Origin: Raillietiella orientalis
Taxonomy: Eukaryota
Length of the DNA: 64,000 bases
Assembly: GCA_036172245.1 (NCBI GenBank)
Contig: JAYWIR010000044.1
Span: forward strand, 1,612,001-1,676,000
Reading direction: 5' to 3'
The notes under the pieces were generated by a model. It had not been told where the DNA came from. It searched no databases and saw nothing but the letters and a program-made list of their open reading frames with translations. This document shows, piece after piece, positions 1 to 54,029 of the stretch. The position numbers and the translations under genes were made by a program. Each line of letters opens with the position of its first letter. The first letter of the stretch is position 1.

Positions 1-2117
1 TCGCAGTCGATCTCCAGAAGGCGTTCGACTGTGTAGACCAGGAACTCCTCTTGGAGCTCCTGGGTTGCATGGGCTTCCCACCCTCCTTGATATCCTACCT
101 GCGCTCGTCCTGGCGGAATGCGATGATTACCGTCTCTTTCAGCGGCCACAAGGTGTATGGCGTGCCGGTGCGGCAGGGCATAAGGCAGGGAGAAAGCCTC
201 AGCCCCCTGCTCTTTAGCACCTACTTTGAGTTGGTGCTGAGAGCGTACAGGGTGACTTTGGTTCCCTTGCCGAGCTCGTGCCCCGGAACGCAGGCCGTAG
301 CGGCGTATGCCGACGATCTTCTGCTCCTCTTACCTATGTCCACCCCTGCGAAGGCGGTCGGAGACTTCTTCGACCTGCTCAATTGCGGTACCGGACTGCA
401 GGTTAACAGGGCGAAGACGTCCGTAATGCCAGTCGGAGCGGCGTGGGCAGGGCAGCAGGACTGGGTCCGTTTGGGGATCCCCACGGTGAGGTACTTCAAG
501 TACCTTGGTGTGCCGTTGGGGGACTACTCCCCTGCGGAAGCGTGGTCCGGCTGCCTTCAGAAGGCTCAGGCGGCGATCGGCCCGTTCCAGGACGCCAGGT
601 TCTACCTGCAGGAACGGGCCGCGGCGTGGAACGCGTTTGCGGCCCCCCTCCTTCGCCCCTTGCTTTTTGTTTGCCCCCCTCAGCGGAGTCAAAGAAGAGG
701 GCGAAGGACCTCCTGAGGATCGCCCTTTGGGGCAGAGGGAGGCCCCGAGTCCGTCTTTCGGATTTGTGCGCTCCTCGTCGGGATGGTGGTCTGAACCTCT
801 TGACGTTGGAGAGGCTGGAGCTACAGCTCCAGTTCCGAGTTGTTGCCTTTATGGCTGAAAATTGGTGGTCTCCTTGGTGCCTCCCTGCACGTCTTCTCGT
901 CGAGCGGGCCACCGGCAATGCGGAACTCTTGTCCTACTTTGCACTCCGAAGCCCGATCTGCCACTGCGGACTTCAACTTCGGAGGGCGGCCAATCTCGTG
1001 AAGAACAACTCGGCGCGGATCCTCGTACGCCCCGCGAACGCTCCTGCCTGGCTGCAGGAAACCGTCCGCACGTGGGCGATGATTCAGGAGCAGAGCCCGC
1101 AACACGAACGAATAGCTCTGTTCGGGCCGCATGCCCACCGCACGCTCCGAGAAATCATCGAGAATCCCCGAAGGAGAGCGTGGGCACAAAGAACCTCCCT
1201 TGCTGCGGTACTGCTTACCCTACGGGAACATCTGGGCAGCGATGTCGCGGCACAATGGGAGGTTACTGTCAAGATCGCCAGCAGGGCAAAGAAGATCGGG
1301 GATTGGAGAACGGGTCAGCTCACAAACGCTGCGATCCCGAGGACCACCCCAAATGGACTGTTGCGCCGGGGAGAGCTACTGGATGTTCCAGAGGAACATC
1401 TCGAGTGGACCCCGGTGCTCATGGACTCGCGCACCCTCCCCATGAAGTGGCAACAGTCGGCACTGCTGGTGTTGCATTGGGGGCTTCCTTGCAACGCCCA
1501 CCGACACCACTGGACGCGGGGGGGTGTCAACCCTAATTGTGTCAGGTGCGGGGAGAGGGAATACCTCCCCCACCTGTTAGTGGATTGTGTTGCCCTCCGT
1601 CCCTTGTGGGAACGCTTTGCCGCAGCCCTGGGGATCCCCGGAGGCAACCCCAGAGACGCTTCGCGCCCCCTCTTCGTCCGTGACGCCCTGCCTCCAGCGG
1701 CATCGCTTGCAGCCCTGTGCTGCCTACGCGGGATCGTCGTGGCATGGAGCAAAGCGACGGAAGGATCCAGCGACAAGGATGCCAACGTGTATGCCGCCCG
1801 TTTCCTCAGGATGGCGACGCGATAACCCCATCTGGAACCACACACGCAGAAACAGCTTGCCGGCATCCTCCAGAGGATGACGGACCTTCCCAGCAGACTG
1901 TGATCCCTTCCCGCTCCCTCCCTGATTTTTGTTTATTTTTTGTTTTCTTTTTGTTTCGTTCCTCCTCCCCTCTGCTGCCGAGGTCGACCGCGCCGGGCTG
2001 CGCATCGGTAGCCCGGGAAGCTATATCTTTCCAGGGCGTGGCTGGACTACTGGTCCAGTCGCAGATTGTATAGGTTTATTCGTGAGAATAAACGTCCCGG
2101 CGCACCCGGGTTTCAAT
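1..2117 (+). mobile_element. L1/Tx1-like LINE, 3' part (RT, C-terminal CCHC, 3'UTR); continues left of the window
   Basis: ORF 51-716 has GIRQGESLSPLLF, YADD and KYLG. After a frameshift, ORF 443-1825 has RRDGGL and NCVRCGEREYLPHLLVDC. Ends in AATAAACGTCCCGGCGCACCCGGGT (2087-2111). Confidence 0.93.
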
Positions 2118-5100
2118 CGAGGTTGCGCAGGATGACGCCTCTCAGGAACTGACGGATATGTTCCGCCGCACCGTAGATGCGCGTCCAGTTTCCTGGCATA
2201 CGCCTCGCCTTGGATGGTGGTCCTTTTGTCGCGTGGCATAATCTCGATTATCAACCGGAAGTGGCTTAATAGCGTCAACGGAAGTTTCCGTCGTCTGCCG
2301 ACCCGTGGGCACAGGTCGGTGTCAAGGAAGACGTGGTCTACGCTTTGGGCCATTTCCGGTTGTTCCCACAGCGAGTTGCAGGTACGCATAGCGGCGCACA
2401 ACTCGTTGGTTGCGTCTTTTTGCCTGCAAGGCACACCTGAGAGCAGGCGGATGTTGAAATCCCCACTGATCAGATGTGCCTTGCGTACGTTTGTATCCAC
2501 CAGCCAGTCGCGCTTCAGGGTTTCGAGGAACCGGGAACGTTTCCCGTACCCGCGTCCTCCGCTCGGAGCGTACACATTAGTCACGACAAGGTCGATCGAG
2601 TTGGACCAATTAAGGATAAGCTGGCCAACCCGACTGTCCTTGTCAAATCGTACGTCCGTGACGAAGGAAGCGACTGCTGGCTTCATAAAAAACGCGACGC
2701 CACAGGTGTTGCGAGCGCCGCATTGCCAAAATAGACGACCCCCGGGTCGTCCGAGAAAAAAAAAAAAAAAAAAAAAAAAAACAGCCCGCTTTGGAGGCTT
2801 TGTGGTTAAGGCTTCCGCGCATGTCACCATGCGTCGCGCGTTCGAATACTTGGGCAGATAACTTGACGCCATTGCGTCGTTTGGGTTCCGAGTTTCTCCT
2901 GCAGCGGCCGTTGGCTGGCCGAGACATTCGGGCGTGGCCCCGGCGGTAGATAATGCCGGCGGCCTCCCGATGAAGGCGGGAACAATGGATGTCGACCTTC
3001 GGGTCCTCCCAGGAATAAAGGAGTGGGGAGTTCCCCCTCCTGTGTGCAAAGGAGAGTGGACCCCCGTCACCGGGGGGACCGCCTCCGGTTTCAAGATGGA
3101 GCAGGAGCCCTCAGGGGCACTTCTCCAGTCGTTCAAAGGAACGGACCCCCCTGTTGGGGGGTCCCTCCGAGTCGTCGCCTCTTCACAGAGTGTGTACAAA
3201 GGAAAGAAGCTAAGCGAGAGCGATTCCCTGCGGGAAGCTGCAGCGCCCCTTCTGAGTTTCGGAAGCACCCCTGTGGGGGTTGTCTTCAGAGGAGTGAATA
3301 AAGGAGCGGTTCCCTTGCGGGTTCCCTTCGGAGAAGTTGAAATGGAGAGTACCACCACCCCGCAAGGGGGTGTGTGTCCCTCCGGAGAGAATGAGGAAGG
3401 AGAGTTCCCTTCGGGGTTCCCCTTCGGAGACAACCAGAGTCGTAGGTGAGATCTCCCCCGTCCGGGGGGATCCCTCCCCAAGCGTGAGAGGAACGGACTC
3501 CGAGCCCTTCCTGGATTCAATAGGGCGGACCCCATCCCGGGGTGCCCCCTATCCTGAAGAATATTACACTGAAGAATTACACGCCCCCCCCTGCGGGTTG
3601 CCGCGGACAGGCATGGAAACAAAACAGTGTGTTAATGTTTAAAAAGAGCCACGCGCGCCGCGAGGCACGCGACCGGCTCTCAGGTACTTAGCGAACCAAC
3701 AAAAAGAAAACTCTTTAAAACAAAAAAGGTGGAAGGAAAACAGCGAAGACAGAAGAAAAAGAAGAACCCAAGGATCATCATCGTCCTAGGCCAATAGTAA
3801 CGATCTCCTCGTGGGATCGCTACTGGCCTTAAGAAAAAAAAAAAAAAAAAATAGACGACCCCCTGCGATCCTTTCGATCTCCTGGGCGTTCTCGACGGTG
3901 ATCACGTGGATCTCTTGCAGGAGTGCCAGGTCGAAGTCACGCAGGGTGTCGGCCGTGTCCCGCCTGTTGCCGTCATCGCGTAGCCCGTTGACGTTCCAGC
4001 AGGCTACGCGGATCCGACGGCGACAGGCGAGCCCAGGTGTTATTCCTGGGAAAGTGGCAATGGGGCTCCCGCCACCTTGTCGGGCGGGACGCTAGGAGGA
4101 GGGGGTGCGTCGCGCACCGCTTCTCCCTCCTCCATGGAGGACGATTCGACGTCGGGGCCTTGCAGAGGAAGTAGGGGTTCACCCACCTGCACATCCTTCT
4201 CCATGGGGGTCGCTAGCTGCACGGTGTCGGGGAATGAGATATTCCCACCCTTGCCTCCCACGCTGCCGGCTCCCCCCTCGGGGGTCGATTCATTCGCCTC
4301 CTTATTGATCCGGATGCGCCTCCTGGGATTCTGAGACTTCCGTCCCGTCTACTTTCGTGGCGCCTCCGCTGAAGAGGACGCAATTTCGACGTCCGGATCG
4401 GCCTCACCTGCCTCCGGAGCCTTCCTCGCAGCCGGCCTTTGCAAGGCTTTTCGCGAGTTCTTTTCACGGCCTTGCAATTCAGCCGTGAGTTCTATCACCG
4501 GCTGCTGGAAGGCGGCCTCCTCGATCGCGTCGAGCGCGGCGCGCGGTTACCCTTCTGTTTCGCCAGAGAGTTCACCATCGACCGTCGCAACTTCGGCGGA
4601 CGCGAGGGTGGGGATTGCTCCCCCGGTGGCGGCATCGGGTGCCTCCACATGTTCTAATTTTACCGAACATGCGCGGAGCTTTTCGCGGCACGGTTTTTCG
4701 CGCTGCGTTTTTGTTTTCACCTCGTTTCGTTCGCAACTCCCGGGTTTTCTTCGTGGCTGTACCGTCTGCCAGCCTTCGCCGTCTCCTGCGTCGTCGGGAG
4801 TGTTCTCAACCGACGTTTTCTGTGAAAGCTTAGGGACTGGCATCTGGGTGTTTACAGCCTGTTTCTGTTTATGCGTCTCTTTCGTGCGTTTCCCCTTTGC
4901 CTTTTTTGCAGCGGATGGGGGTGGGATTTCTCTTCTTGGGCACACCTTACGGATGTGGCCCTTATTTCAACATAAGTGGCATTGGATGTTACGGCACCGC
5001 TTTTTTAGATGCTCTGGGGCATCGCAATGGCCACAATACTTGGGCTTACCCACGTACCAAACATCGACTTTTTCTTCGCCGATATTCAGTTTGTGGGGAA

Positions 5101-5851
5101 GCCCACCATTCTCTGGTAGGGTGACGCGGGCTGCGGCCATCCCACTGAATAGCCTTCCGTACGTTCGGAAGAATTTGGGTTTGGCCCAACACGCGTGCAC
5201 ATTACCATGTTTCGCCAACTCCTCCTGGACACCGGTTTTGCCCTTCCGTAGTGTCACGCCTGTGAGGTGGACCACGACGGAGCGGTCCTCCGTCACAGAG
5301 AAGATCCTGCGGCCGTCACTGTAATAGGGGTGTTCAGCGGGCGTTGCGCCAGACTTGCATCTCTGCAGGTCAGCTCGACTCGCTGTCCCGCACTGAGGAC
5401 GGAGAGGCCCTCAACGTTTTCCTCCCTCACATTAAGCCGTTGCAGCTCTATTTCGAAGGAGTGTGCAATCTTTTCGTCAAATACACTGCCTACCTTATAG
5501 ATCAGCGACGGTTTGTAGCCGCTGTTTTTGTAGGCATTCTGCTCCGCAACTGCAGCCGGGGATGGTGCAACAACGACGTTACTCCAACTCCTCGCCAATG
5601 GCTAAGATGGTCGCGAAGGGGCGGTTGCCAACGATTCCGAAGGGGCAAGTGCCCCGGATTCCGTGGGGACGGATGCTCCCACTTTCATTGGTGGAGGAGA
5701 GCATGTCGTTTCTCCTCCTTCAACTTCCATCGCAGTGTGCTCAGGCATTTCTGCCATGGGACACCGGTACTCCCACACATCAGACAACCAACGAAAAGCT
5801 TCCCACTAACCAATCCGTGGAGCGATGCCAAACCACGTCCGCTCCCTAGAA
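2118..5851 (-). mobile_element. Family F LINE, 5' half (5'UTR, broken ORF1 5757-4040, APE), interrupted by the 2744-3851 insert and cut off at 2118
   Basis: ORF1 knuckle CGHCDAPEHLKKRC; APE motifs WNVNGL, LQEIH, CGVAFF, NVYAP, GDFN, SVDHVF. Close copy at 22004-23939 (+). Confidence 0.9.
2744..3851 (+). mobile_element. Poly(A)-tailed retroposed insert of unknown family (SINE-like, or the 3' end of another non-LTR element)
   Basis: 16-bp TSD AAAATAGACGACCCCC at 2728-2743 and 3848-3863; A18 tail at 3834-3851; stem-loop at ~3788-3829 before the tail; the host APE sequence rejoins across it. Confidence 0.85.
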
Positions 5852-6463
5852 CGACACGGGGAAGTGTTAACGCAAACTGTGTTCGGTGTGGAGAGCGGGA
5901 AACCCTCCCGCACCTTTTTGTTGAGTGTTCTGCCCTCCAGCCCCTGTGGGAACGTTTCGGTTCCACCTAAGAAATCCTGGAATGTAGGCTTGCCAGAGAC
6001 ATTTTTCGGCTCCTCTTCGTGCGGGACGTCCTGCAGTCAGCCGCTGTAATAGCAACTCTCTGCTGCGTACGCGGTATTGTGGCAGCTTGCAGTGGATACG
6101 ACAAAGCAGAGGATGTTAGCAGAAGGAATGTCATGAAGTATGCAGCTCGGTTTCTGCGAATAGCATCCCAATGGCACCACCTGGGAAATCTGCAAAAGGA
6201 CCTCGTCGTCATCCTGCAATGGATGGAAGCTCCTTAAAACAAAAAGTGATCCCTTCCCGTCCCTCCCAATGACCAGTGTTTCTACTTTTTATTTTTTTTC
6301 ATTATTTTTATTGTTTCCCTAACCCCATCCGTTGACGTGAAGTGTTTTGTCGGTCTGTGCACTGATCACCAGACAGCTCCATAGAACTAATGGTCTTAGA
6401 GGGGCCTTGTACCGCAAATACTGTTAGTTTTTAAAAAAACGCCCCGGCTTGACCGGGTGAAAA
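5852..6463 (+). mobile_element. LINE 3' fragment (CCHC finger and 3'UTR)
   Basis: TRGSVNANCVRCGERETLPHLFVEC; TGATCCCTTCCC at 6247; terminal hairpin CCCGGCTTGACCGGGT at 6443-6458. Confidence 0.88.
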
Positions 6464-8107
6464 CGTCTATACAAACGCTCCGCACCGCCCCCGCCACCCT
6501 GCCCCGGACAAGGAATGCCACTCCGCAGGTATTCTGGGAGCCTGACCTTTAATAGAGCGTCTTGCCTGCGCGAACTTGCAGATTGGCCGCTTGCTGCTTG
6601 GAGAGTACGTGAATCTCTTGCAGCAGGGCCAGATCGAAGTCGCGCAGGACGTTGGCAACCAATCGCCTCTTCTCGTTGTCCTGCAGCCCGTTGGCGTTCC
6701 AACAAACCACTTGCACGCGACGGGAAGAAGCGAGACCGCGCATTGCTGCTACGGACATGGAGGTGCGTTCCTCGTTTCGTCCGGCAAGGCATCAGCCGGT
6801 AGCACGGCGGGTGGTAAAACGCAAGCGCTTCCTGTCCCCACCGCGCCGCTCGCGGCTGGCTCGGTGGAGTCGAGGACAATTGCTTCGAGCTCCGAGGAGC
6901 ATCGAAAACCGTTCCCGGCATCAGGCTCTTGCCTGGCAAGTTTCGGCTTGAGCGCAGCCGTGGCCTTGACCGGGGCTTGGCGAGCCTTTGCGCTGCATTC
7001 GGACTCCACCTCGAAGTCCGAATTCCGCGCGAGCGGCGAGCGTTTTGCCTGCCTCTTCTTCTGCTGGCAGCTCGGAGCTTATCCAGCATTCTGGGAAGGC
7101 GCCTTCGGCGCCGTTCCCCCTTTCAAAATCGCGGCGTAGGCAGATCCTTTTTCGCCGCGGGTGTTTGCGACGGTGCGCGCGGCGGCAGCAGAGTCTTTTT
7201 CTTGCGCCTTTCTTGGCGCGCGGGGCTGCCTTTTAATCCCGCCTACCCTTTTAATGGAGGAGTGGGAAGGATAGAGCGGTTTGCGCTTTTTCTTCCTTCT
7301 CCCAACGAAGGTCCAGCCAACCTCGTCGCTCTCAGTTTTACCTTGATTGAGGGCGAAAGCATCCAGGGTCCTTTGCATCCTTTCCAAGGCCTGCGATGCG
7401 AAGATAACTGCCAGTGTCGACTTCGCCACGTCTTCCTTTTGCACCTTCTTGCAGGAAGGTGCGGGCAGAATGGTGGGATCCTTTAAGATCGCGCGATGGT
7501 TTTCACCCTTTGTCAGCTTTCGGCTCGCCGTGGCCGGCTTGCTTTTCGCAAACAAAGGGACGCGCGACCCCTTTTTCGACGCTCCGGTGGACTTTTCGGG
7601 AGTGCCGCGGTATTTCTCTCCAAAGCGAGAGAGAACGTTAGCGGCGGTTTTGCAGTCTGGCCGATGTTTTTTTTAGACTGCTTCGCTCGGGGCTTGTTTG
7701 TAGCTGCTTGGAGAAGCTTTTAGTCCTTTTGCGCGGGCTTTTAAGGAGCTTTGCTCCCAGACACGCCCGCCTAATCGGATTTTGTTCTTGTGCGCTGCGG
7801 AACCTCGTTTGCGCCGGATTTCTTTCCTGACGACGGAGCGGATGGAGTCGGCGCGAAAGGCGATGTTGAGCAGAGGTTTCTCGCCCTCCTCTTACGTTTT
7901 AGCTGGGCGCACTCGTAAATCGAGTGGCCGAGCAGTTTGCAGTATCGGCAACTGTGTGTCGGGCACTTCCGCTAGCGATGGCCTCTTTTTTCGCAGTTGC
8001 CGCCAGCTGGGGTTTGCCCGGCAAACCGTAGATACACGGCGACGTCACCTAGAAGGATCTGCGAAGGCATGAGCCTCCGGTCGTCCATAGTGACACCCGC
8101 AGTGGCG
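6464..8107 (-). mobile_element. B-related LINE fragment (end of ORF1 and APE N-terminus)
   Basis: ORF 6549-6758 reads VCWNANGLQDNEKRRLVANVLRDFDLALLQEIH, followed by NTCGVAFLVRG; Lys/Arg-rich ORF1-like sequence upstream. Confidence 0.82.
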
Positions 8108-10220
8108 ATTCACACTTGGATGTGCCGGGATATTCATTTCAGTAAAATAACAATTCAACTAATTGTCGCGTGGAGAACCCGAAAGTCCACCACTTCAATA
8201 CTGCTTGCAGGTTGCCGATGCTGTGCCGGCATGTTCCTTCCGATGCGCGGGATGGCGGAAAGAAAAGCAAAAACCAAACAAAAAGTTTAAATGAGGGAAG
8301 GAAGATAAGATTCAGTAATAGGAGGGCAGGAATGAGAACACGGTGCGCGTGTAGACGTCCTCTAGTTCCTCTTCAGGATCCGCACAAGCTGAGTCTTTTC
8401 TGCGCCAAAGTGGCGCCACTTGCAGACACCGCGCGAGAAAAGGCGAGTTTAGTGTAAGGCGTTGACGGTTGGCTGACGCCTTCTTCTGGTGCCGTTCCAA
8501 GCCGCCACTATTCCTCGGATGCATCAGAGGACTGCTACACTAGCGGGCGGGGACAATACGTCACTATAGAAGAAACGCCTCAAAACGTCCTTCGATCCGC
8601 ATCCGCGCAAGTCCAGGATCGCCGCGAGACGATCCCGCAAAGGGCGGAGGGCGCTGCACTCAAGAAGAAGGTGGGGGAATGCTTCTTTTTCCCCACACCG
8701 GTCACAATTAAAATCCACAGCCCTCCAGGTGGTGTGGTGCAGGCGTGCTTTAAATGGTAATCCCCAGAGTACCACAAGCAACGCCACATCATGCCATTTC
8801 AGGGGGAGAAATGCACTGTTCCAGGACGCTGGGGGCCACTCCATCTCCTCCGGAGATAGTCCGAGTAGCTCACCCCAGCGTAGAATTCCATTAAGCGGGA
8901 CACTCGGCGTCGCAGCGTCAGGTAGCTGCCGAGATGTCCACGCCTTTATCGATTGTGTCCTGCCGCCTATGGTGCAGGACACGGTCCATTTCCCCTGCTC
9001 GCTACTGTCCCTGGCATTTTCAACAAAGGGCAGCACTGGGGCGAAGGGGGTTATCAGAGCTCACAGAAGCTGGTCGTGGGACTGCACGATCTCCTGCAGC
9101 GTCCAGCGGAAGCGCCTTTTCAGGCAAGTTTTCCTTGTGTCCTCCGGACGTGGATCTTTTCCCAGGTGGAGACTGACTCGTGCAACCAGGCAGAGTAGTT
9201 CCCTGAGGGGCAGGAGATCCAAGCGATCTCCCGAATTGCAAGGGCCATGCGTCGCAGGTGAGAGCCACAATGTGCTCTTCTGCCGACGCGCACAGACAGA
9301 AACGACAAAAGTCCGCCGGATCCGCTAGCTCGTTGGGCCAGGAGGCGTGCTGAGATGCACCAGGGCGTGTCCCACAGTTCTGCCGCGAGGGCAAGAGTCC
9401 TAAACTGGAGTTGCACTTCCATACGCTTCAGCGTAAGAACGCCAAGTGCACCGTATTTACGTGGAGCGCACAATTCTTTGAGGCTTACACGGGACCTCCC
9501 TTTGCCATAAAGGACGGTCCTCAGGAGGCCCGCTACTCTTTTATGGACAAAAAAGGAAGCGGGGCACACAAACAGTAGGAAGCGGAGAAAGCAGGCCGCA
9601 AACGCGTCCCACATTGCAATTCGTTCCTGCAAGTAGAACTTGCCGTCCCCGAACGGACCGATCGCCAACGCTGCCTTCTGGAGACGGTCCGACCAGTCTT
9701 CTGCTGCGCAGAGGTCCCCTAACGGGACGCCGAGCTCGTTGAAGCACCTGCCCATGGGGATCTCCATGGGATCCAGTCCGACCATCTATTCCACGCCGAT
9801 CTGGATAAAATCATAAAAGGCATTGCTTTCCTCACCTCCAGGCCCGGCCTGCGGCGCAGCAACTCGAAGAAGTCCTAGCGCGCACTCGCAGGGGTGTACC
9901 CAGGAAGCAGCAGCAGAAGATCGTTTGCTTAGGCCGACCCGGCTGTCGTGCAGGCACACAAGCTCTGCAAGGTTGCCAGAGTTACCCTGTATGCCATCAG
10001 CGCCAATTCGAAGTAGATGCTCAAGAGCAAGGGGCTCAGGCTTTCACCCTGCCTGATGCCGCGGTGCATTGGCACGCCGTACACCTGCCGGCCGCTGAAA
10101 CCAATATTAATATAAGAATTGCGCCAGCTGGAGCGCAGGTAGAACTGGAGCACGGCCAAGAAACCCGTGCGTTCCAGGAGCTCCAAAACAGGTTCCTGGT
10201 CGACGCAGTTGAACGCCTGC
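8108..10220 (-). mobile_element. Family E LINE, decayed, RT to 3' end
   Basis: GIRQGESLSPLL (9929-10186), FNCDRCGEKEAFPHLLLEC (8524-9036), degenerate terminal hairpin at ~8108-8140. Confidence 0.85.
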
Positions 10221-10225
10221 GCTCT

Positions 10226-12300: not shown

Positions 12301-12304
12301 GAGG

Positions 12305-17147: not shown

Positions 17148-17154
17148 TTGCTCG

Positions 17155-20100: not shown

Positions 20101-20690
20101 GGTTCATAGGGAACTCGTCGCAAAAATCCTGCACCGAGCGCTCGAAGCAGTGCCAGTCCTGAAGCGTCTGCAAGCTAAAACATCGTATGAATCCGCGGAG
20201 ATGCTCTGCGGCTTCCGGCAATTTGAGCCAATCCCCCGGTAAGCGCCACGCAGATGATGGGGGAATCCTATCGCGTAGGCGCACCTCGAGTACGATCTGC
20301 TCATGGTCCGTCAGTTCCGACAGTAACTTGCCGCGCCTGCCCACGCGTAAGCATAGGTGCTGGTCAAGAAACACGTGATCTATGCTGTCGGCCATTTCCG
20401 GATCTCACGCGAACAAGTTGCGCGTGTGCATCTCAGCGCACAGCTCGTTAACGCGGTCCCGAAGTGTGTCGGACGCACCTGACAGCAGGCTCAGGTTAAA
20501 GTCACCTGCGATTACGTGCGCTTTGCGCACCCCCGTTCCGTCCAGATATTCGCGCCTCAGGGTAACGAAGTAATGTCTCCTTGCCTTTGCCCTTGGCGCG
20601 TCGCTGCCGCTTGTGGCGTACACGTTGGTAATGTCAACAACGATGGAGTCGGACCGCCTGATAATCAACTACCCGACGCGACCGGGAGGG
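17155..20690 (-). mobile_element. LINE (C/I-like), mid-APE to 3' end, decayed
   Basis: GDFN and SIDHVF (19964-20668), KAPG, DLHKAFD, RQGDSMSP, KYLG, NCARCRKRESLTHLFLDC; terminal motif at 17185-17155. Confidence 0.9.
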
Positions 20691-27290: not shown

Positions 27291-27318
27291 CCGGTGTAGT
27301 GTGGGTCCTCGGTGTCCG

Positions 27319-36755: not shown

Positions 36756-36763
36756 GTTGAAAT

Positions 36764-37908: not shown

Positions 37909-37912
37909 CTCG

Positions 37913-41941: not shown

Positions 41942-41968
41942 CGAGTGCGGACGTGTTTTTCTTCGCTC
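41942..41968 (+). promoter_or_regulatory. Shared LINE 5'-terminal motif GCGGACG(T/G)GTTTT..(C)GCTC, candidate internal promoter (representative copy)
   Basis: Variants at nine 5' ends: 5851-, 10226+, 17147-, 22004+, 24612-, 26749+, 36755-, 39635+, 41942+. The function is inferred. Confidence 0.55.
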
Positions 41969-44900
41969 TTGTCTCCGTGCTTACATCCGCTTCATCTTGG
42001 CGTCGTACATTTTGACGACGATGTCGACCCAACTTGAAAATACTGAAGTTGGAGGAACAGCATCCGGATCTGCAATCGCGGAACCGACGGCCGCCTCCAC
42101 TTCCTCTTTCTCGCCAAGGAAGAGGAGTTTTGCTGACGTTGCTGCCACAGCAGCCGTCAAAGGGAAGCCACTCTACGAGTCGGAGTTGCGGGCATACGTA
42201 GCCGAAGGCTATAGACCTGCTCTCTGATATAAGGTGAGTGGTTTTCTTTCTGCGCGCGACGGGAATCAGTTCAACGATAAACTGTCCCGTGTTGGCGTGC
42301 GGGAGGAGGACCTTCTCGCCATTATGCCCGTAAAAGACATTGGCTATTTCAAGGTGCGTTGCAAAGACGCTGCACTTGTGCAACGCTTGCTGCGCACCCC
42401 GTTGTCGATCCGTGGCCAGAAGATCTTCCCGGCCGCTATGGACGACTCATTTGTTGTGGAGATTTTCGACATCGAGTCGGAAATCTCCGATACTGATATT
42501 CGGAACGCGTTCGCGAAATTCGCCACGGTCCATGCGCTGTGGAGGGTGCGTAGCAACCTCAAGGACTTCCCGTCCATACACAGCGGAGTCGCTGGAGTCC
42601 GGCTTACAATGCCGGTCCGCCGTCTGCTGACCACCAAACTACAGGTGAAAGACACGGTCGTTCACCTGTGGTTCGTGGACAAAGTGAGAACGTACGAGCA
42701 ATGCGGGAAGGAGGGGCATTGTTTGGATAAATGCCCCTCCGGAAAATGCCGTTATTGCAAACTTACAGGGCACCAATTGAAAATTTGCCCGGATCTTTTG
42801 CGAAAAAAGGCAGCCGCGGAGCTCCATCTTAAAAAACAAAGCGCGGATAAAAAGAAAAAGTCTGCGAAAAACCTGGAGACCTAGGCGCAATAGCTGTCCT
42901 TCCCAAGCACGCCCGGCTCTCTCGGAGTTCGAGCAACCGGCGGAGACGCCAATGGACAACGGCGATAAGGGCACTTCCAGTACCGTCAGATCCATTCCTT
43001 CACCTACTGCAGTGGCTGAGAAGCCCAAATCGGGTAAGAAGGGTTGTGCCGTGTCGACTTCGAAAGTCGGCAAAAAAGTATCCGTGTCGCGATCCAACAC
43101 CGCGAAAGCGGAGAAAAATCTCACGCCGTCGCAGTCGGAGAGCAAGCTCTCGACTGGCGCGGATGCCATGCCAACGGAGGGATTAGAAACCATTCCGAAG
43201 GCAGCGTCCATGACGAGCGTGGCGGAGCTATCGAAAGTGCTCCCGTCCAAAGACGCGGATGGCTTCAAAGATGGCAATGGAGCACAATCTCCATTTACGG
43301 CGCAACGCGAAGTGAGGAACCGTAATGAAGTAAAGGAGACTTCCGCAAAAGTCCCTCGTGCAACTGCCCGTGAGCACTCTGAAAACAGGCGCGCCGGGAA
43401 AGCAGCCGTCACCAAAAGCGATGCTCTGGTGACGGAAAACGAAAACAGGACAGCTGTCGATCCAGCAGAAACTGTCACTGCTTCGCGGAAGGCCGAAACC
43501 CGATCGAACATGCGCCGGTCGGACTCCGAAATGGATGCCGTTCCGATCACCGAGACGAGGACAACTCGTTCAAAAGCGTGTGCGCGCCGAACAAAAGTAG
43601 GCAGCGAGGCAACGCTCGCCGCGAAGCAACGCGGAGTCTCCAGGAAACCCGACGGGGTTAAGCCTGACGTGGAGGCATTACATGCATGCAGCACGACGGA
43701 GGACGGTGGCGACCGTCCATTCCAGCCAGTCGTGCTGCTCGCCGTCTGCTCGCCGGATAAAGCGAGCAAAAAGCCGCCACCTTCCCAGCAGTAATGCGGG
43801 GAATCGCGTCTTCTCGTCGTCTGTCCGTAACGTGTTGGAACTTGAACGGACTACAGCACGACGAGAAGAGGCGATTAGTAGCCAACGCCCTGCGCCCCTT
43901 CGACCTCGCGCTCCTGCAGGAGATTCACGTAATCTCCGACGAGCAGGCAGCCGAAATCGCAGAGCGCGCAAGCGGAACGCTACATTGGCGGTGCGGCGGC
44001 GCACACACGTGCGGCGTCGCGTTCCTCGTAAGAGGAAAAATGGCGGAAGCGGTGCGTGGTGTTCGTTTCGATGACGACGGACGGATAGGCCAGCTTGTCA
44101 TCAAGTGGTCCGAGTCCATCGATCTCGTCGTCACGAACGTCTACGCGTCGAGTGGCTCTCGCTAACTCGAAGAAAGAGTAGCTTTCTTTGGTGAGGTGCA
44201 GAGCAACTGGCTCAACAACTCCGGCTTCCAAGTGACGCACCTCGTCCCTGGGGACTTCAATGTCCGCCTGCTCTCCGACGATTGGAGCCGCCCGAGGGAG
44301 CGCGCGCTGCACATCGAGATGTGCGCGTCCGTGCGCGCCGCCAACTTGATGGTCAGCGAACCTGGAATGGAAAGATCGCTCGATCACGTTTTCCTCGATG
44401 AAAACCTGCATTCGCGTGTGGGTAGGAGAGGAAGATTGTTGACTGAGCTTTCTGACCACTACAGGTTGGAGTTTGAGGTCCTTCCGCCAGGCAGGGGGCC
44501 TCCGTTGCAAAGGTGGAGGATGCAGGCGGATTGGCTTAGCCAACCGGAGGCTGCGGAGCATCTACGTGGATACCTCCGAGGCTTTGCCATTCAAGAACTT
44601 GCGGACTGGGACGATCTCAAAAGATCTGTCCGCGAGTTCTGTTGCCAATTACCCTTGCACCGGCTTCCACGCGGTTTCGGAGAGGGCGTGGCCAACAGTA
44701 GAGACTTTCTGCAGGCCCGCACGTTTTCGAGACGCGCGGATGTCGGGCGTCTCGCAGAGTACAAGGCGAGGGCCCAGCGCCAGGTCTGGCAGTCCGGAGC
44801 AGCATGCCTTTTGGACGACAAGGGCCAGGAATTTTCGGCCTCAGCCGAGGTACGCCGCATTGTGAGACGCTACTACTCCTCGCTCTACGCGGAATCCCCT

Positions 44901-47662
44901 ACTGAGGATATTCTTGCTTAGATCTCAGGATGCTCGTGTTGTCGGCGAGGAGGAACGCGAACGTCTCGACGAGCCCTTCACGGCGGATGAATTTTCGTCC
45001 GCCATCGCTGGGCTGAAGAGATGAAAGGCGCCCGGCGAGAATGGGCTCCCTGCAGTGTTTCATCAGTGCTTTCCAGTGGAGCTCATTCCCTTGATGCTAA
45101 AACTCGCGACGCTGATGAGGGAATCCGGGAATGTCCCAGATTCCTTCCGCTCAGCGACGGTGCGTCTCCTGCCGAAAGGCGGAGACTTGCGCCAACTTAA
45201 CCACTGGCGTCCGATCACCTTGGTGAACTCGGACGTCAAGTTGTTTTCCAAGCTGTGGGTCGCGCGGTTAGGAAGAATCGCGGAATCTGTGGTGAGCCCG
45301 GAACAAACCTACGCGGTTCCGGGACGATCCATGGAGGCGAACATCCATTTCGCGCGTACATGCATGCAGCTCCAGGAAGTTGTGGCACAGCAAAGCCAGG
45401 CTGCTGCGAAAGTCACTGCCGCAGGCAAAAAGAACAGGCGCCGACGGCAGGAGGGAACGCCAGGTGCCTTGGCGGTCGCGGTCGATCTCCACAAGGCGTT
45501 CGACTGCGTAAACCAGAAGCTGCTTTTGGAGCTTATGGAACGCCTTGGGTTCCCGGCGCAACTCCTGCTGTATTTGCGCGCGTGCTGACGCCACGCGCTA
45601 ACCTGCATCACTTTTAGAGGCTGCCGCGTGTATGGTATTCCCGTACGTAGGGGTATCCGACAGGGCGACAGCTTAAGCCCGTTGCTCTTCAGCATCTTCT
45701 TTGAGTTGGTGCTAAGAGCATACAGGCTGACGCTGTCTCACTTGCCAAGCTCCTGCCCGGGAACGCCTGCTGTGGCCGCCTACGCTGATGACCTGCTTCT
45801 TCTGCTCCCCATGTCCACCCCGGCGTCCAGTGTCGAGGATTTCTTCGAGCTGATTCGTCGGGGAGCGGGCGTGAGCGTGAACAGAGAGCAGAGCGTGGTG
45901 GTTCCTGTGGGTACGTCGTGGGAGGGGCACTCCGACTGGATCCGCCTGGGGATATCCACGGGCAGGTACTTTAAGTACCTTGGCGTTCCGTTGGGCGCTT
46001 TCGGCGCAACCGAAGCGTGGGCGGACTGTCTTCAGAAAGCAGAGTTTGCCATGAGCCCGTTCTAAAACGGCAAGTTTACCTTGCAGGAACGGGCGACTGT
46101 TTCGAACACCTTTGTGGCCCCCCTCCTCCGTCCCCTGTTTTTTGTTTTGAACCCCCCCTATGCGGCGAAACAGCGGGCTAAGCGCATGCTCAGGAACGCT
46201 CTCTGGGGTCCGGCGAGATCCAGGATCCGCCTTAAAGAATTGTCAGCTCCGCGTCGGGATGCTGGTTTGGGTATCCTGACAATGGAGCGAATCGGACTGC
46301 AGGTGCAGTTCCGACTGCTTGCACTGTGTGCCCAGCTATGGACATCCCCCCTGTGTGTGCCAGCTCGCATTCTCTTGCGGAGATGCGCCGGCAGCGGAGG
46401 ATTTCTCTCGCTTTTGCCGGGCACTCAATACAGGAAGCGGGGTTTCGGGTTTCCATTGCGGCAGTTGACCGCACTTCTGGAAGCACACTCGTGGATCTCC
46501 TGCCGCCCAATGAACTTTGAAGCTTGGCGGCAGGAGTCTGTTGAATCCTGGGCGGCGTTCCAAGGAATACGCCCTGAAGATCTTCGCCCCCTGCGCCAAT
46601 TTTTTCCACGATCCTTGGAAGAAGTACTGCAGGACGAGGTGAAGTTTTCTACCCTGGCGGTCACGCCTCTTGCCGCAGCGCTGTCTGCCCTCAGGGCAAG
46701 AAAGGACAGTTACCAACCGGCGAGGTGGGAGGTTTCCTGCACGATAGCGGGAAAAACCAAACTCCTTGGCACCTGGAAGACAAGTGAGTTGGCGGACGCC
46801 GCCACTCCTCGTGTTACTGCAAATAGACTCCTCCGGTGGGCAGAAGAACTTGCTGTCACCCCCGAAGAACTAGTAGTCCCTCCACAGTGTATGGACAGTT
46901 CGCTGCTCCCCCTTGCTTGGAAACAAGCCGTGCTGCTTTTCGTTCACTGGGGTTTTCAGTGCAACGAGCGTTGGCATCGTGACTCCGGGGGACTTGCGTC
47001 TGCGAACTGCGTTCGGTGCGGATCGACGGAGTCGATTCCGCACCTACTTCTAAACTGCGGTGTCCTACAAGGACTGTGGCGTAGGCTGGCAACAGCACTA
47101 TTGCATCCCGTGGACACCGCAATTGACTTGCTGCGACGATTCTTCACGCCGAGCGGGCTTTCACTAAGCGCAAGGATTGCAACCATCGGTTGCATACGCG
47201 CGATAGTTTCCGTCCGCCAGGCGATGGTAATCAACGGACAGCACCAAGAGGTAATCAGCAAAGCATCCTTCTACATGGGAGCATCCGCTAGATGGCCTCA
47301 TTTGACAGAGGAGACAAAGAGGAATCTCGCCGCAAAACACCGCCGGTTTACACACGCTCAGCAGCGGCCAACGCGGTGATCATTGCCCTACCCTCGATAA
47401 ACTATTTTTGTATTTTCTTTTAACACCCCCGTCCCCATAGGCTCCGGAACATTTCAGGTGCTCATCGTTTAAATCCCCGTGAGTACGGAGCCTAACAAAA
47501 AACCCGTAACCCTTCCCTCCAGTTTTTGATTTTTGTTTGTTTCCCCTCATTCCTCCCACGCTGCGTGCGGTTTGTTTACCAGGCCTTCGTGCCGGTAATT
47601 TTTCTATGTTCTCTGTCGTTCTGTTGGTTAAGGACATTGTCCCTGACCAGTTTATTATTATT

Positions 47663-47692
47663 AATAAACGCCACGGCGTGACCGGGTGATAA
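47663..47692 (+). other. Shared LINE 3'-terminal signal AATAAACG + CCCGG-loop-CCGGGT hairpin (representative copy)
   Basis: Fourteen copies (three lacking a clean AATAAAC), each at an element 3' end. Confidence 0.85.
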
Positions 47693-50600
47693 ATTTCAAT
47701 TTCCGCCTGCTAACAGGTGAGCCGGAAACACAAGTGAACGCGATGAACGAGTTGTGCGCCGCTATGCGTGCGCGCAACTTGTTCGCGGGTGAGAAAGGAA
47801 TGGTCCGCAGCATCGACCACGTCTTCCTGGACGCTGACCTGTGTTCACGCGTCGGCAAACGGGGGAGGGTTGTGTCGACGTTGTCGGACCATTCCCGGCT
47901 AATTTTCGAGATGCGGCCTCGCGACAAAGGACCGCCATCCAGGGATTGGCGTCTGCCGGGGGACTTGACGCTACTCTCAGGTGCGAAGGAACACCTTCGC
48001 GAATACCTGAGTGGCGTCACGCGCAGGAATCTCCAGGACTGGGACCTTTTTCAGGAATCGGTCCGCGAGTTCTGTGAGCAGTTTCCCCTGGATCGCCTGC
48101 CCCCCGGATTCGGCGAGGGTGCTCGCAACCATCGGGCCTGATTACAGGCTCGTAGGTACGAGAGAACCCTTAATGTCCGTCGCCTGGCTGAGTACCGCGC
48201 CGGGGCCGAACGCCAAGCCTGGCAATCCGGGTCGGCCAGCTTCCTGGACGACCAGGGCCGGGAATGTTCGTTCCCGGCGTCGGTACGCCATCTCGTGCGG
48301 AGTTTTTATTCCTCCCTTTACGCAAGGGAGCCCCCGGATCGAAACGCTTCTCGGCGCTTGCTTCCGGATGGCACCCCGGCAATAGGGGAGGAGGAAATGG
48401 AAAGCCTCGACGAGCCTTTTACCACCGGCGAAATTCTCGCCGGTATCAAAAGGCTCAAGAGGCGTAAAGCTCCAGGGGAAGACTGCTTGCCCGCGGAGTT
48501 CTTTCAGAGCTTCGCGGAAAAGCTGGCGCCCCTGCTGCTTAAGCTGATCAGGCTGATTCGAGACGAAGGCGATGTTCCCGCCTCGTTTCGGTCAGCCAGA
48601 GTGAGGCTCCTTCCGAAAGGGGGAGACCTCAGGAATTTAAAGAACTGGCGTCCGATCACGATCGTGAATACGGACGCCAAGTTGATAGCAGGGCTATGGG
48701 CTTCGCGTCTGGGGCAGGTGGCAGAATCCGTAATTAGTCCGGAGCAGACTTATGCTGTTCCCGGTCGAAGTATGGATGCCAACCTCTTCTTCGCAAGCAC
48801 ATGGGTGCATCTGCAGAGAAGAGAAAAGAAAGGGATAGGGAAAGTCGGCAACCCCACATTGGGGCCGCCAGCCGGGTTGGGAAGGGACCCCCGGGCAGGG
48901 AAGGGGGCCCTAGCGCTCGCAGTCGATCTCCACAAGGCGTTCGACTGTGTAGACCAGGAACTCCTCTTGGAGCTCCTGGGTCGCATGGGCTTCCCACCCT
49001 CCCTGATTTTCTACCTGCGCTCTTGCTGGCGGAATGCGATGATTACCGTCTGTTTCAGTGGACAAAAGGTGTATGGCGTGCCGGTGCGGCGGGGCATAAG
49101 GCAGGGCGATAGCCTAAGCCCCCTGATCTTCAGCACCTACTTTGAGTTGGTGCTGAGAGCGTACAAGGTGACTTTGGCCCCTTTGCCGAGCTCGTGCCCC
49201 GGCACGCCCGCCGTAGCAGCGTACGCCGACGATCTTCTTCTCTTGTTGCCAATGTCCACCCCGGCAAAGGCGGTCGGAGACTTCTTCGATCTGCTCAGCC
49301 GCGGGACCGGACTGCAGGTTAACAGGGCGAAGTCGTCGGTTGTGCCAATAGGTGCGGCGTGGGCAGGGCAGCAGGACTGGGTCCGTCTGGGGATCCCCAC
49401 GGCGAGGTGCTTCAAGTACCTTGGTGGGCCGTTGGGGGACTACTCCCCTGCGGAAGCGTGGTCCAGCTGCCTCCAAAAAGTCGAGACGGTGATCGGCCCG
49501 TTCCTGGAAGGCAAGTTTCACTTGCCGGAACGGGCCGCGGTTTGGAACGCCTTTGCGGCCCCCATCCTCCGCCCCTTGCTTTTTGTTTGCCCTCCCACCG
49601 TGGAATCCAAGAAAAGGACGAAGGACCTCCTCCGTATCGCCCTTTGGGGCAAGGGGAGGCCCCGAGTCCCACTGAAGGACTTGTGCGCTCCGCGTCGGGA
49701 CGGCGGTCTTGGCCTCCTGACGCTGGAGCGACTGGAGAAGCAGCTGCGGTGGCGAACCCTCGCCATCGCAGCGAAGATGTGGTGCACCTCTTGGTGCACT
49801 CCGGCCCGCCTCCTGGCCAGCCGTGTGTCCCGGTGCGATGGACTCGCGTCTTTTCTTCTCAGGCGTGGCCGGAAGATGCGAAGATGCGGCCTACTGCTCG
49901 GGCGCATGGCAAGATTGGCCAAGGAGAACAGCTGGATGGTTTGCTGCCCCGCCAACTTCCCCGCCTGACTTGAGGAGAATATTGGAACGTGGGCAGTGGT
50001 TCACCAGAGAAGCCACGAGACGTGGAATCGTCTCCGATGCAGCCCCTACGCCCGCTGCACGCTGCGGAATCTCCTGGAGAGTCCAGCAAGATGCAGCTGG
50101 GCAGAGACGACCTGCTTAGCTACGGAGCTGCCCTTCCTGAGGAGGGCACTTCACAGCAGCCGGACGCCAAGGTGGCAAGTCTCCTGCTGCATCGAGGGAC
50201 GCGAGAAGTTGATCAGCGGCTGGACAACAGGAGAACTGGCAGACGCCACGACCTTGAGCGTCCAGCCGCGAGGACTAAGAAGATGTGGCGAGCTGCTGGC
50301 CATCCCTATGGATGTGCTGAAGTGGCCCCTGCTTCTTCAGGAATCCAGGGTCCTGCCCCTTGAGTGGAAAGAGACGGCGTTGCTGTTGTTTCATTGGGGT
50401 TTACCCTGCAACGCACGCCGCTCTCACTGGACAAGAGGAGTTGTGGATCCTGCGTGTGTCAGGTGCGGAGAGCGGGAATCGCTCTCCCACCTTATTGTGG
50501 ACTGTGCTGCCCTTCGTTTCCTTTGGGAACGGTTTGGGACGATCCTCGGTCTCCCAACGGGCAGTTCCCCTAGAGACGTTCTTCGGCCCCTCTTCGTGAA

Positions 50601-51037
50601 GGACGCCCTGCAGCCAGCCGCAGCCCTTGCAGCCTTGTGCTGCGTCCGAGGCATCGTGGCGGCATAGAGCGACACCAACAAGGAAAAAGTGGGTCAACAC
50701 GCGAGGGATGTCATCCCATATGCCCAACGCTTCTTGCGAAGAGCTGCTGGATGGCCCCAACTGAGGAATATACGGATGGACCTCGAGGGCTTCCTTCAAC
50801 GGATGGGTCCTCCTCTCAGCGAACAGTGATCCCTTCCCTGCCCCCCAACCTCACTTGTTTGTTTGCCTTTTTGTTTTTATTTTTGTTTTTCCCCATCCCC
50901 TTTCGCTGCCGGGGAGTGCCACGCCTGGCTGCGTCCCGGCGTCCCGGTAGGTCCCGTGCATAAGGCCGTGAGCGGGGCCTGGAACCGCAATTGTAGAGTT
51001 TTTATGAATAAACGCTCCGGGCGTACCCGGGTGGCAA

Positions 51038-51450
51038 CGCCGAATCCCCGGGGCAGACGTTGCACAGGGAACTCTTTGCAGAACTCCCGGACCGAGTCCT
51101 TAAATAGGTCCCAATCCGCGAGACTCTGGATGCTGACGCCTTGCAGGAATTCGCGAAGATGTTCTTTCGCTCCTGACAGGCGCATCCAGTCCTCTGGGAT
51201 ACGTTAATCCCTGGATGGTTTCGGCGATGCTCCCCGGATACGCCAAGACGTTTATTAAAAACATTTCGACAGTCAATACAGATCGTGGTACAAGGTCCCA
51301 CTGACGGCCACGTAATGCCGGACCTTCCGCTTCACCGGGACGCAGCCCGGTGTGGCTCTTCTCGGCAGTGAGAGGGGATGGGGGAAAAAACAAAAAGAAA
51401 AATAAACCAGAAAACAACAACAAAAAAAAAAATTGGTGCACAAATTATTC
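51038..51450 (-). mobile_element. A-related APE-RT linker fragment (51038-51226) plus an A-related 3'UTR (51227-~51450)
   Basis: Matches 29556-29737 and 32470-32670 respectively. Confidence 0.85.
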
Positions 51451-51459
51451 ATGCTGATC

Positions 51460-54029
51460 CGTGAACGTGGGATGAACTCAACTCATTCCTGTCAGCTTGA
51501 GTAGATCTCCTTTCTAAGGGAGGAGACTTGCGCAACGTTAGCAACTGGCGTCCCATCACTGTAGTGAATGTGGACGGAAAGTTGCTCGCCACACTCTGGG
51601 CTGAGCGGATGGGACGAGTAGCGGAATCCGTGGTCAGTCCGGAGCAGACATACGCTGTTCCCGGACGAACCATTGAGGCCAACCTGTTCCTCGCCAGCGC
51701 CTTTGGGCAGTTGCAACAACGCGAAGCGCAGCTAGTTCGGGAGAGTCTTGGACTCTCTACTGAGCGGGAAGAAGGAAGCCGGGGGGGAGATGCAGCGTCT
51801 GGAACCCTTGTTGTCGCAATCGATTTGCGTAAAGCTTTCGATCGCGCCGACCAGAAGCTCCTTCTGGACCTCCTGGAACGCATGAAATTTCCGGCCGTCT
51901 TCCTGGCCTACCTGCACTCCTTTTGGCGCTTTGCGTCAAGTAGCATTAATTTGAGCGTCCGGCACGTGTACGGCGTGCCGGTTCGTCGTGGCATACGGCA
52001 GGGTGACAACCTGAGCCGTCTGCTCTTCAGCATCTACTTCGAGTTGTTGTTGAGAGCATACAGGGAGACCTTGGCAACCCTGTTGAGCTGGTGTCCCGGC
52101 ACGCCTGTCGTGTCGGCCTATGCAGACGACCTTCTTCTACTGCATACCGGATCCACCCCGGCGTCGGCGCTCGAGGATTTCTTCGAGTTGCTGCACCGTG
52201 GGATGGGCCTCCAAGTAGACAGGACGGAGTCGGCGTTACTATTCACGGAATCGACGCGGGCCGGAAGGTCGGACTCAATTCGCCTGGGGATCCCTACGGG
52301 CAGGTACATTGAGTGGCTTGGCGTTTTGTTGGGGGACTTCTGCGCTGCAGAATCTCTGTCCAACCGTCTCCAAAAAGTGGAGTTGGCGATCGGCCCGTTC
52401 CGGGACGGCAAGTTTTACTTGTAGGAGCGGGCAGCGGTGTGGAAAGCTTTCGCAACCCCTCTCCTTCGCCCCCTACTTTAAGTGTGCTCCATCCCACCAC
52501 AAATAAGGACACGGACAAGGGACCTCCTACAGAAAGCCCTTTGGGGCAATCGGAATCCCCGCGTCCGGCTCGAAGACTTGTGCAGTCCACGCAGGGACGG
52601 TGGAATTGGTTTCCTAACGCTGGAGCGCATGGAGCCACAGCTCCAATTCAAGAAACTTGCCCTTGTGGGAAGGTTTTGGACAGCACCCTGGTGTGCTCTA
52701 TGGAAACTCCTCGGCCACAGGGCAACCGGCTGCCACGGATTGACCTCAATCCTGGTAGCCAACTATTGTAGCCTAAACCATTGTGGGTTTCTGCTTCAGA
52801 ATCTGGTTGCTACTGTGAAGGAGAATCCGTGGATCTCCTGCATCCCAGCTGTCTGGAATATCTGGCTCCAGTTGTCCGTTTCCGCATGGTCGAAGGTCAA
52901 CGGCTCCAGCGATGAGGACTTCCGCCTCCGTACCTGCAGGTACGCTTGTCAGCCACTGCAGGAGATCGTGTCCAACCCACGAAAACTTCCTTGGCATTCT
53001 TTCACTCCCCTTGCCCCCGTGCTGCTTTCCCTCCGGGAAGTCAGGGACAGCCAACAGGAGGCATCGTGAAAAGTGTCCTGCCTCATTGGAGGCAGGAAAA
53101 AAGTATTGAAGGCGTAAACGTCCCGGGAATTAGCGGACGCTAGTACCCCGAGTGTCCCGCCGAATGGACTTTTACGCTGGAACGCGCTCTGGACGTACCT
53201 CCGGAGGAGGTGAAGTGGCCTTCGGCGTCTTGGCACAACGGCACCCTTCCCCTGCAGTGGCAGGAGACGGTGTTGCTTCTGCTCCACTGGGGACTTTTAA
53301 GCAGAGCACGCCTGTCTCGCTGGACATCGGGGAGTGTGGCTGCTAATTGCACAGACTGCGGGGATAGAGAAACCTGTCCTTACTTCATCCTAGAGTGCGT
53401 TGCCCTTCGCGATATGTGGGACCGACTCTCGTCGATCTTGAACATTCCGCGGGGCGACCCGAAGAACATCTTTCGACTCCTGATGCGGGACTCCTTGCCA
53501 GCTTCCAGGTGTGTAGCAGTGCTCTGTTGCATACGCAGTATTCCGCGTATGCAACAGAGCACTGCTGCATACGCGGAATACTGCACAAGTGGACCGCGTC
53601 AAGTAGAGGCCATACCAGTTGTAATGCCCTCCACTGAGCAGCTATCCCCTTAGAGAAGGCCTGCCGTTAAGCCGACTTCGAAAACATTTACAGGCTTTCG
53701 TCCGTATCCGTGAACGGAAGCAGGGGCCTCATCGCGACGTACCGTGATCCCTTCCCTTCCCCCCTCTCCAAAAGAACATTACCCCCCAGGCGTTGTCTGT
53801 TTTTTTTTTCTTTTATTTTTGTTTTCCCGCCCCTGAGCCACTGTGGAGGACCTTATCGATCTGCGGTTCGGTGAGGACAAGACCCTTAAGACAGTCGTTT
53901 CATGTGTTCCGACTGGAAAACAAGCAGAACAACGAAAACTTGACTACTTAAAAATGAAGACTTTATTATGGAATTTTTTGTATTGTAAAAATTTTAATAA
54001 TAAGAGCCCTGGCTCACCCGTGTGAAAAA
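51460..54029 (+). mobile_element. Family E LINE RT to CCHC (to ~53540), then a further 3' fragment/3'UTR (~53585-54029)
   Basis: WRPIT, DLRKAFD, RQGD, YADD, NCTDCGDRETCPYFILEC; TGATCCCTTCCC at 53745; degenerate terminal motif at ~53996-54029. Confidence 0.87.
53515..53584. repeat. Double fold-back (two overlapping inverted repeats)
   Basis: 53515-53536 pairs with 53545-53566; 53535-53553 pairs with 53566-53584. Confidence 0.92.

Follow-up and report, generated by a model that had tools for sequence, protein, structure and literature searches.

The 64,000-nucleotide (nt) stretch of Raillietiella orientalis DNA analysed here (assembly GCA_036172245.1, contig JAYWIR010000044.1, positions 1,612,001 to 1,676,000 of the forward strand; hereafter the window) raises the question of how an island made of long interspersed nuclear elements (LINEs) grows and, more specifically, whether sibling LINE families settle in conserved coding motifs of one another, as a first-pass annotation had proposed for four families termed A, B, D and F. 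The recurrence of a family at one homologous host position is real for F, for D and for A at amino acid (aa) ~329 of the second open reading frame (ORF2), and was overstated for B and for A in general; a hyperparasitic partition of targets among the families is possible but unproven, with n = 2 per family. The account that we favour, with belief and doubt about evenly balanced, is that of a Zepp-like, LINE-only cluster in which related L1/Tx1-like lineages would insert into older copies by target-primed reverse transcription guided by short sequences, the products having been scrambled later.

The LINE-only island and the anatomy of its elements

Positions 1-54030 of the window hold only fragments of L1/Tx1-like LINEs, encoding APE, reverse transcriptase (RT) and a C-terminal CCHC finger, at a GC content of 52-62% as compared with 38-46% in the rest of the window, which bears out the earlier description of a LINE nest without genes. 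A tblastn search with one 915-aa ORF2 (28762-31509) as the query returned 28 high-scoring segment pairs on both strands, spread over the whole island, and the addition of ORF1 and C-terminal queries brought nearly all of it under coverage. This ORF2 matches Exo_endo_phos (1.1e-12) and RVT_1 (4.3e-22), and its best solved relative is human L1 ORF2p (E = 6e-43), with R2 proteins at 1e-11 to 1e-14. The CCHC finger lies in the C-terminal domain after the RT, with ..HW-TRG.. upstream of it and the motif C-x2-C..H..C in 9 copies; the corresponding zf-RVT match is weak, scoring 21 bits against a Pfam cut-off of 27.5. The elements thus carry the features of APE-type retrotransposons without long terminal repeats, namely an N-terminal APE and an RT in ORF2 together with the C-terminal CCHC, and the island those of a Zepp-like cluster, being LINE-only, nested or tandem, distinct in GC content and composed mostly of 5'-truncated copies. 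Identities of 61-90% between RT cores separate the copies into several lineages. Public protein and metagenome collections contain hardly any close relatives of the ORF2: the protein search gave 9 matches, only one of them close (68%), and metagenome contigs gave 66 loci, all distant (21-43%, with unnamed relatives at 36% or less over long matches), plus one 28-residue match at 61%.

All lineages have in common a 3' hairpin, AATAAACG-NCCGG-N5-CCGGG, seen at 14 ends and followed by a lineage-specific tail, including (i) TGGCA(A/T)CGCC in the A family (H1, H2, e12 and a small copy; element names as in Table 1), (ii) TGATAAATTTCAAT in B, (iii) TTTCAAT in e1, and (iv) TGAAAA(A)CG in e6, e18 and e53; a metagenome scan for the hairpin pattern gave 0 matches. 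Full-length copies open with a conserved leader, CGAG.. or CGYTCTAGG.. followed by GCGGACGTG, and nine such 5' starts with a shared leader structure were counted (B, B', D1, D2, F1, F2, e15, S18 and H2a). The 5' untranslated region (UTR) is only ~130 nt long before the ORF1 start and holds two hairpins conserved across lineages, with stems of the GAGCG..CGCTC and GGCAG..CTGCC types (10220-10360, 26744-26885, 41942-42080 and six others). A 5' self-cleaving ribozyme is unsupported, since Rfam at its gathering thresholds gave 0 matches, the two leader hairpins included. As regards e1, its identity to H1 and H2 is 85-88% up to ~828 (1-828) and ~68% beyond (829-2016), a step that suggests modular recombination between lineages.

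Junctions at homologous host codons

The placement of F at W|TRG, before the CCHC finger of two different host families, holds. The F1 leader (5853->5836, minus strand) adjoins antisense e6, which starts at 5854 with ACA CGG GGA (TRG), and the F2 leader (22002, plus strand) adjoins antisense e21, which ends at 22001 with ACG CGG GGA, both junctions falling at the T of TRG within 0-2 nt. The two F copies are ~90-92% alike (88/98 positions near the junction), whereas their hosts, e6 being A/e1-like and e21 B-like, are identical at 60/96 and 38/58 positions up to the junction (62-65%), with a sharp step there; to judge from these identities, the F junctions are two independent events.

The D junctions claimed at DxxKAFD in two hosts are likewise real. 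The D1 leader (10220) adjoins antisense e9 at CAG GCG TTC AAC and the D2 leader (26741) adjoins antisense e24 at (CGA) AAA GCA TTT GAC, both at the Q/K of KAFD (H|KAFD) within 0-3 nt. D1 and D2 are 75-80% alike (79/99 identical near the junction), and the hosts show 63% identity (0.76, 0.61 and 0.53 at codon positions 2, 1 and 3, respectively). With e24 nearest to H1, H2 and e1 (73%) and e9 nearest to e51 and e1 (69%), each of the two has nearer relatives in other lineages than in its counterpart, so that the two are taken as independent and, by this comparison, of different lineages. Duplication of an ancestral chimera was ruled out as the origin of these F and D junctions, given that closely related partners sit in hosts of different lineages. 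What was called the D family is the 5' end of a LINE, with leader, 5' UTR and an ORF1 start with a CCHC knuckle, and D may not be a family of its own. The two D-occupied hosts also have in common a stretch of 16 identical nt, located 10-26 nt away from the junction and absent from other copies; it is suggestive only, because runs of 13-17 nt occur between other distant LINE pairs too. The orientations are as first described, namely B in sense and D and F antisense to their hosts.

The five A junctions claimed at CGCC come down to four clear 3' ends, at 14537, 32674, 51041 and 51223 (the last on the minus strand), which carry the tail GGCA(A/T)CGCC and were found as three exact matches and one with two mismatches among the 146 matches of a search allowing up to three mismatches. 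Three of them run antisense to the host and the remaining one runs in sense; the possible fifth, sense to its flank, is the degenerate 3' end of e9 at 8104 (GTGAATCGCC). The ends at 14537 and 51041 adjoin antisense hosts of different families at the same alignment position (..F/V|G.., ORF2 aa ~329), which reads ..TCGCC|GAATCC in uninterrupted H1 and H2. The end at 32674 adjoins B' at aa 724, where uninterrupted B reads ..CACGCC|CGCTCC, and the end at 51223 lies in sense at aa 262. Only 2/4 A sites are thus homologous, the others having just CGCC in common, and the A 'target' is this 4-nt stretch in which tail and target overlap. Counting both strands, the nest contains CGCC 767 times, ~80 sites per element, which makes the coincidence of two ends in four only mildly unlikely; the aa-329 stretch is moreover poorly conserved (10th-16th percentile in a crude nucleotide alignment), and the claim that A lands on a conserved coding motif is not supported.

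As for B, three junctions at GDFN had been counted, and their sense orientation and positions are right: B lies in H2 at GGGGATTTCAAT, with junctions at 41941/41942, 47700/47701 and 37913/37912. The first two are the two ends of one insertion, with TTTCAAT, from the GAT TTC AAT of GDFN, standing at both (41935 and 47694) like a 7-bp duplication; three of the 7 occurrences of TTTCAAT on both strands of the nest are at junctions. The third junction, at host' 37913, belongs to an inverted copy, with host' and H2a 96.4% identical and three B'/B segments 95.1, 95.8 and 95.5% identical. This inverted duplication of 7 kb (32675-39626 versus 40228-47700, 95-96%) has its inner junction at the exact 5' start of full-length H2a. 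Host and B were copied together, through either an inverted duplication at the DNA level, with its centre near 39630, or retro-copying of the composite element. In the left arm, an additional B 3' fragment of 1150 bp is joined head-to-tail to B'. This arrangement allows for two B events at most, both at one site, and one independent event is counted.

How far such recurrence exceeds chance was estimated from a model that places random internal breakpoints on a 5.7-kb element and does not yet require the same partner family and orientation: with 20, 25 and 30 breakpoints, three or more coincident pairs within 3 nt have a probability of 0.0023, 0.0079 and 0.017, respectively. Chance becomes much less likely still when it is considered that the three independent pairs also match in partner family, partner end and orientation.

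Competing explanations for the shared junctions

In the favoured account, the insertion site would be picked by a short sequence, through the preference of the endonuclease combined with pairing of the RNA tail with the nicked DNA; such pairing of a read-through 3' tail with the target has been described for R1Bm. Where an uninterrupted paralogue can be read, the target too contains the bases with which the tail ends, CGCC for A at two sites and TTTCAAT for B. An old tail would re-create the target, leading to head-to-tail arrays, and a cluster that offers LINE coding sequence alone would present these short sequences at homologous codons, because of which insertions into different host lineages may fall again and again on the same codon. 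The F and D junctions, as read from their 5' sides alone, would represent family-specific upstream (second-strand) attachment sites, and the nest would later have been scrambled by deletions, by fold-backs at 5' junctions and by the one 7-kb inverted duplication. An 8-mer, AACGCTCC, stands after the tails of e6 and e11, which accounts for 2/4 of its occurrences in the nest (P estimated at ~0.03-0.05); it also resembles the 3' hairpin motif and is suggestive only.

Several observations weigh against reading the shared junctions as directed insertions into host codons. Events number two each for F, D and A at aa 329, and one for B; most motif sites are intact (8/10 KAFD, 10/12 TRG and 6/8 GDFN), with 2/10 KAFD and 2/12 TRG broken; and nucleotide conservation at the junction sites is unremarkable, with percentiles of 0.57-0.90, and 0.10-0.16 at aa 329, in the crude alignment, where the sites do not appear as conservation peaks. 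The D junction sequence itself differs between hosts (AAATGCTTT in e24 versus GAACGCCTG in e9), and the F APE protein is 65-75% identical to the APE of the low-specificity A family, so that a wholly different endonuclease specificity is not obvious. In the window, D and F have only their 5' junctions visible, with no 3' junction or target-site duplication, all four copies breaking off short of their 3' ends, and nowhere in it is there a host half that ends in ..DLH or ..HW; the insertion of D and F into their hosts is consequently deduced from one side only. An apparent ..HW host half behind the 3' end of e21 turned out to be the far C-terminal end of a different truncated copy, and a search with a peptide spanning the F/TRG junction returned 14 candidates, none of which scored. 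In addition, the flanks of almost every element (the A-type H1 and H2, e12 and others) are contiguous in no LINE, so that simple insertion cannot rebuild the nest, and some joins lie between two internal points or lack the terminal hairpin; B alone shows both junctions in one target, with TTTCAAT at each end in the manner of a duplication.

In the strict form of the partition, which we consider unlikely, sibling families would have evolved distinct endonuclease specificities for the codons of their rivals' catalytic motifs (GDFN for B, KAFD for D and W|TRG for F), and would use pads that rivals cannot change and disable competitors. The F and D junctions are indeed precise, family-specific and in unrelated hosts, GDFN and KAFD are invariant in protein, the D-occupied hosts have their private 16-mer beside the site, and B's own GDFN reads GACTTCAA(T/C) instead of GATTTCAAT; nevertheless, B supplies one independent event, A lies off conserved motifs with CGCC sufficing, most motif sites are empty, the 3' junctions of D and F are not visible in the window, and e1, which carries TTTCAAT, sits at aa ~298 of F1 and not at GDFN, other lineages reading ..CCCAATCC.. 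there. More generally, that sibling LINE lineages would use each other's ORF2 catalytic-motif codons (GDFN, H|KAFD, W|TRG) as family- and orientation-specific landing sites is a doubtful proposition; if true, LINEs would parasitise LINEs, building a self-feeding, gene-free and perhaps centromeric island.

The frequent lack of contiguous flanks would also follow if the F and D junctions had arisen while copies were being completed, either from head-to-head joining of the cDNAs of two LINE RNAs at one break or from a template jump of the RT at the 5' end of a full-length RNA; the product would be a truncated antisense LINE followed by a full-length LINE, the fixed points being pause sites or joining preferences. 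At 9/9 leaders the partner meets a full-length element precisely at its 5' start, and divergent (5'-to-5') and convergent (3'-end-to-internal) joins alternate along the island. Three head-to-tail joins (36756/36755, 17153/17154 and ~24610), with an exact 5' leader directly after the 3' tail of another copy, resemble end-to-end template jumps; 2/3 have the same lineage on both sides. Fold-back inverted duplications stand exactly at three 5' junctions, of 22 nt at 27242-27289 (H1), 8 nt at 2736-2751 (a poly(A) retroposon) and 6 nt at 39627-39641 (H2a), and suggest a hairpin step during attachment of the 5' end. End-to-end template jumps in R2 and the 5' inversions of human L1 attributed to twin priming resemble the head-to-tail joins and the inverted 5' segments of the island; in twin priming, however, the inverted part derives from the same RNA, whereas here the inverted partner is of another lineage and the breakpoint is fixed. 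Such completion joining leaves the same family at the same codon, twice and in unrelated hosts, unexplained; when the junctions were read, neither the F nor the D leaders showed convincing microhomology to host sequence past the junction, and nucleotide-exact pause sites across 63%-identical lineages are unlikely, for which reasons we give this explanation a small share of our belief.

Far less probable is that chance, duplicated ancestral chimeras, gene conversion or misassembly lies behind all shared junctions. Duplication of chimeras, which the first-pass annotation had itself named as fatal to its proposal, does account for the B junctions (host/host' 96.4%, B/B' 95.1-95.8%), and D1 and D2 (75-80%) are close in identity to their hosts near the junction (66-74%). 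It does not extend to F, D and A at aa 329, whose hosts are of different lineages: the F copies are 90% alike against 62-65% for the hosts, the D hosts show a pattern of purifying selection and different nearest relatives, the A hosts come from different families, and at least three coincidences have a probability of 0.002-0.017. At 95-96%, the identity between the arms of the inverted copy falls short of 100%, because of which this copy is not a read artefact. An external check was attempted with one public run (X1), from a relative and in short contigs, in which only 0.15 of the sampled words were present; at 85% likeness, 284 of its short contigs could be placed on 7301-27300, and for 182 the likeness was below 90%. 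The 12 listed joints that were checked join homologous positions of different LINE copies (for example 12303/19395, both at aa 556), a cross-family mapping that gives no verdict on the junctions.

Features of the window and comparison with known systems

The coordinates of the elements are collected in Table 1. The poly(A) retroposon that interrupts F1 is unrelated in sequence to the hairpin-tailed LINEs, and the 8-nt fold-back at its 5' junction consists of target sequence. Just outside the island, in low-GC DNA, lies a 3.5-kb inverted repeat (55861-59381 and 59858-63371, 96.9% identical) with a partly palindromic spacer of ~480 bp; no convincing coding ORF was seen in the repeat region.

Table 1. 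Elements of the LINE island and their joins, in window coordinates
Feature	Coordinates	Strand	Description
e1	1..2117	+	LINE 3' part, ORF2 aa 594 to 3' hairpin 2087-2110, then TTTCAAT; 3' end adjoins F1 antisense at aa ~298
F1	2119..5853	-	Full-length 5' end (leader 5853->5836), ORF1 and APE to aa ~298; interrupted at 2744-3851 by poly(A) retroposon
Poly(A) retroposon in F1	2744-3851		1.1 kb; A18 at 3' end, internal A26 near 5' end
Target-site duplication of poly(A) retroposon	2732-2743 and 3852-3863		12 bp, TAGACGACCCCC
e6, host of F1	5854..6465	+	LINE 3' part from TRG before CCHC finger; 3' hairpin 6434-6457; tail TGAAAACG
e9, host of D1	8104..10219	-	LINE 3' part from Q/K of KAFD; degenerate 3' end at 8104
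D1	10220..11409	+	Full-length LINE 5' end with leader, two hairpins in the 5' UTR and a CCHC-knuckle ORF1; cut by e11 3' end
e12	12303..14537	+	A-family 3' part, tail GGTGGCAACGCC; adjoins e15 antisense at ORF2 aa ~329
e15	14538..17154	-	Full-length 5' end to aa 329, e18 family; leader directly after e18 3' tail (head-to-tail)
e18	17153..20685	-	LINE aa ~120 to 3' end, tail TGAAAAACG; GDFN, aa-329, KAFD and TRG sites uninterrupted
e21, host of F2	21412..22001	-	B-like LINE 3' part from TRG
F2	22002..23936	+	Full-length 5' end to APE aa 71; 92% identity to F1
S18	24610->23937	-	5' end of another LINE, head-to-tail after e24 tail
e24, host of D2	24629..26743	-	(R)KAFD to 3' hairpin
D2	26741..27265	+	Full-length LINE 5' end, 520 nt; then 22-nt fold-back 27242-27289
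H1	27290..32674	+	Near full-length A-family: ORF1, 915-aa ORF2, CCHC C-terminus; tail GGTGGCATCGCC adjoins B' antisense, aa 724
Left arm of inverted copy	32675..39626	-	B' 36755->32675; B 3' fragment 37906->36756; host' 39626->37913, ends at GDFN
H2	39636..51041	+	Full-length A-like carrying B; H2a 39636-41941, H2b 47701-51041; 3' tail adjoins antisense H-family fragment, aa ~329
B	41942..47700	+	Full-length LINE, sense, in GDFN; TTTCAAT at both junctions
Hfrag	51042..51222	-	181-bp H-family piece, aa 262-329, 91% to H1; A-type 3' end on either side
Small A copy	51223..51429	-	5'-truncated, tail GAGCATCGCC, sense to Hfrag
e51/e53	51430..54030	+	LINE aa ~482 to 3' end, tail TGAAAAAC; right edge of island against low-GC DNA

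In the full-text literature covered, which leaves subscription journals outside, no report was found of LINE families at fixed codons of other LINEs. Should short tail/target matches or family-specific cleavage at conserved LINE codons direct insertion, the island would offer a concrete growth mechanism for LINE-only islands such as centromeres based on transposable elements, and the coding motif of another LINE would join the list of targets of sequence-specific LINEs.

Target-specific LINE families concentrate in the early-branched, Tx1 and R1 groups, according to the available text of PMC4640811. The elements of the island resemble Tx1/R1-clade LINEs (Tx1L, Keno, R1, TRAS/SART) in encoding an APE and in having putatively fixed targets in repeats with precise junctions; they differ in that the targets would be coding codons of other LINEs, hit in fixed orientation, with a specificity deduced from 1-2 events per family.

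The closest parallel in layout is found in the Zepp and ZeppL clusters of the green algae Coccomyxa and Chlamydomonas, for which self-targeting of LINEs has been described (PMC3446292, PMC8226300) and where nested Zepp reaches 61% GC in a genome of 53% (PMC3446292). As far as the accessible portions of these reports extend, those clusters are, like the island, LINE-only, gene-free and richer in GC than their flanks, with insertion into existing copies, many 5'-truncated copies and tandem 3' ends; self-feeding LINE clusters are thus already known, and those portions do not explain how a new copy locates an old one. The likeness rests on the layout of the cluster: whereas a Zepp cluster consists of one family, the island mixes lineages that are 63-90% identical, its elements lack a poly(A) tail and end in a hairpin with a lineage-specific tail, and its junctions recur at the same codon.

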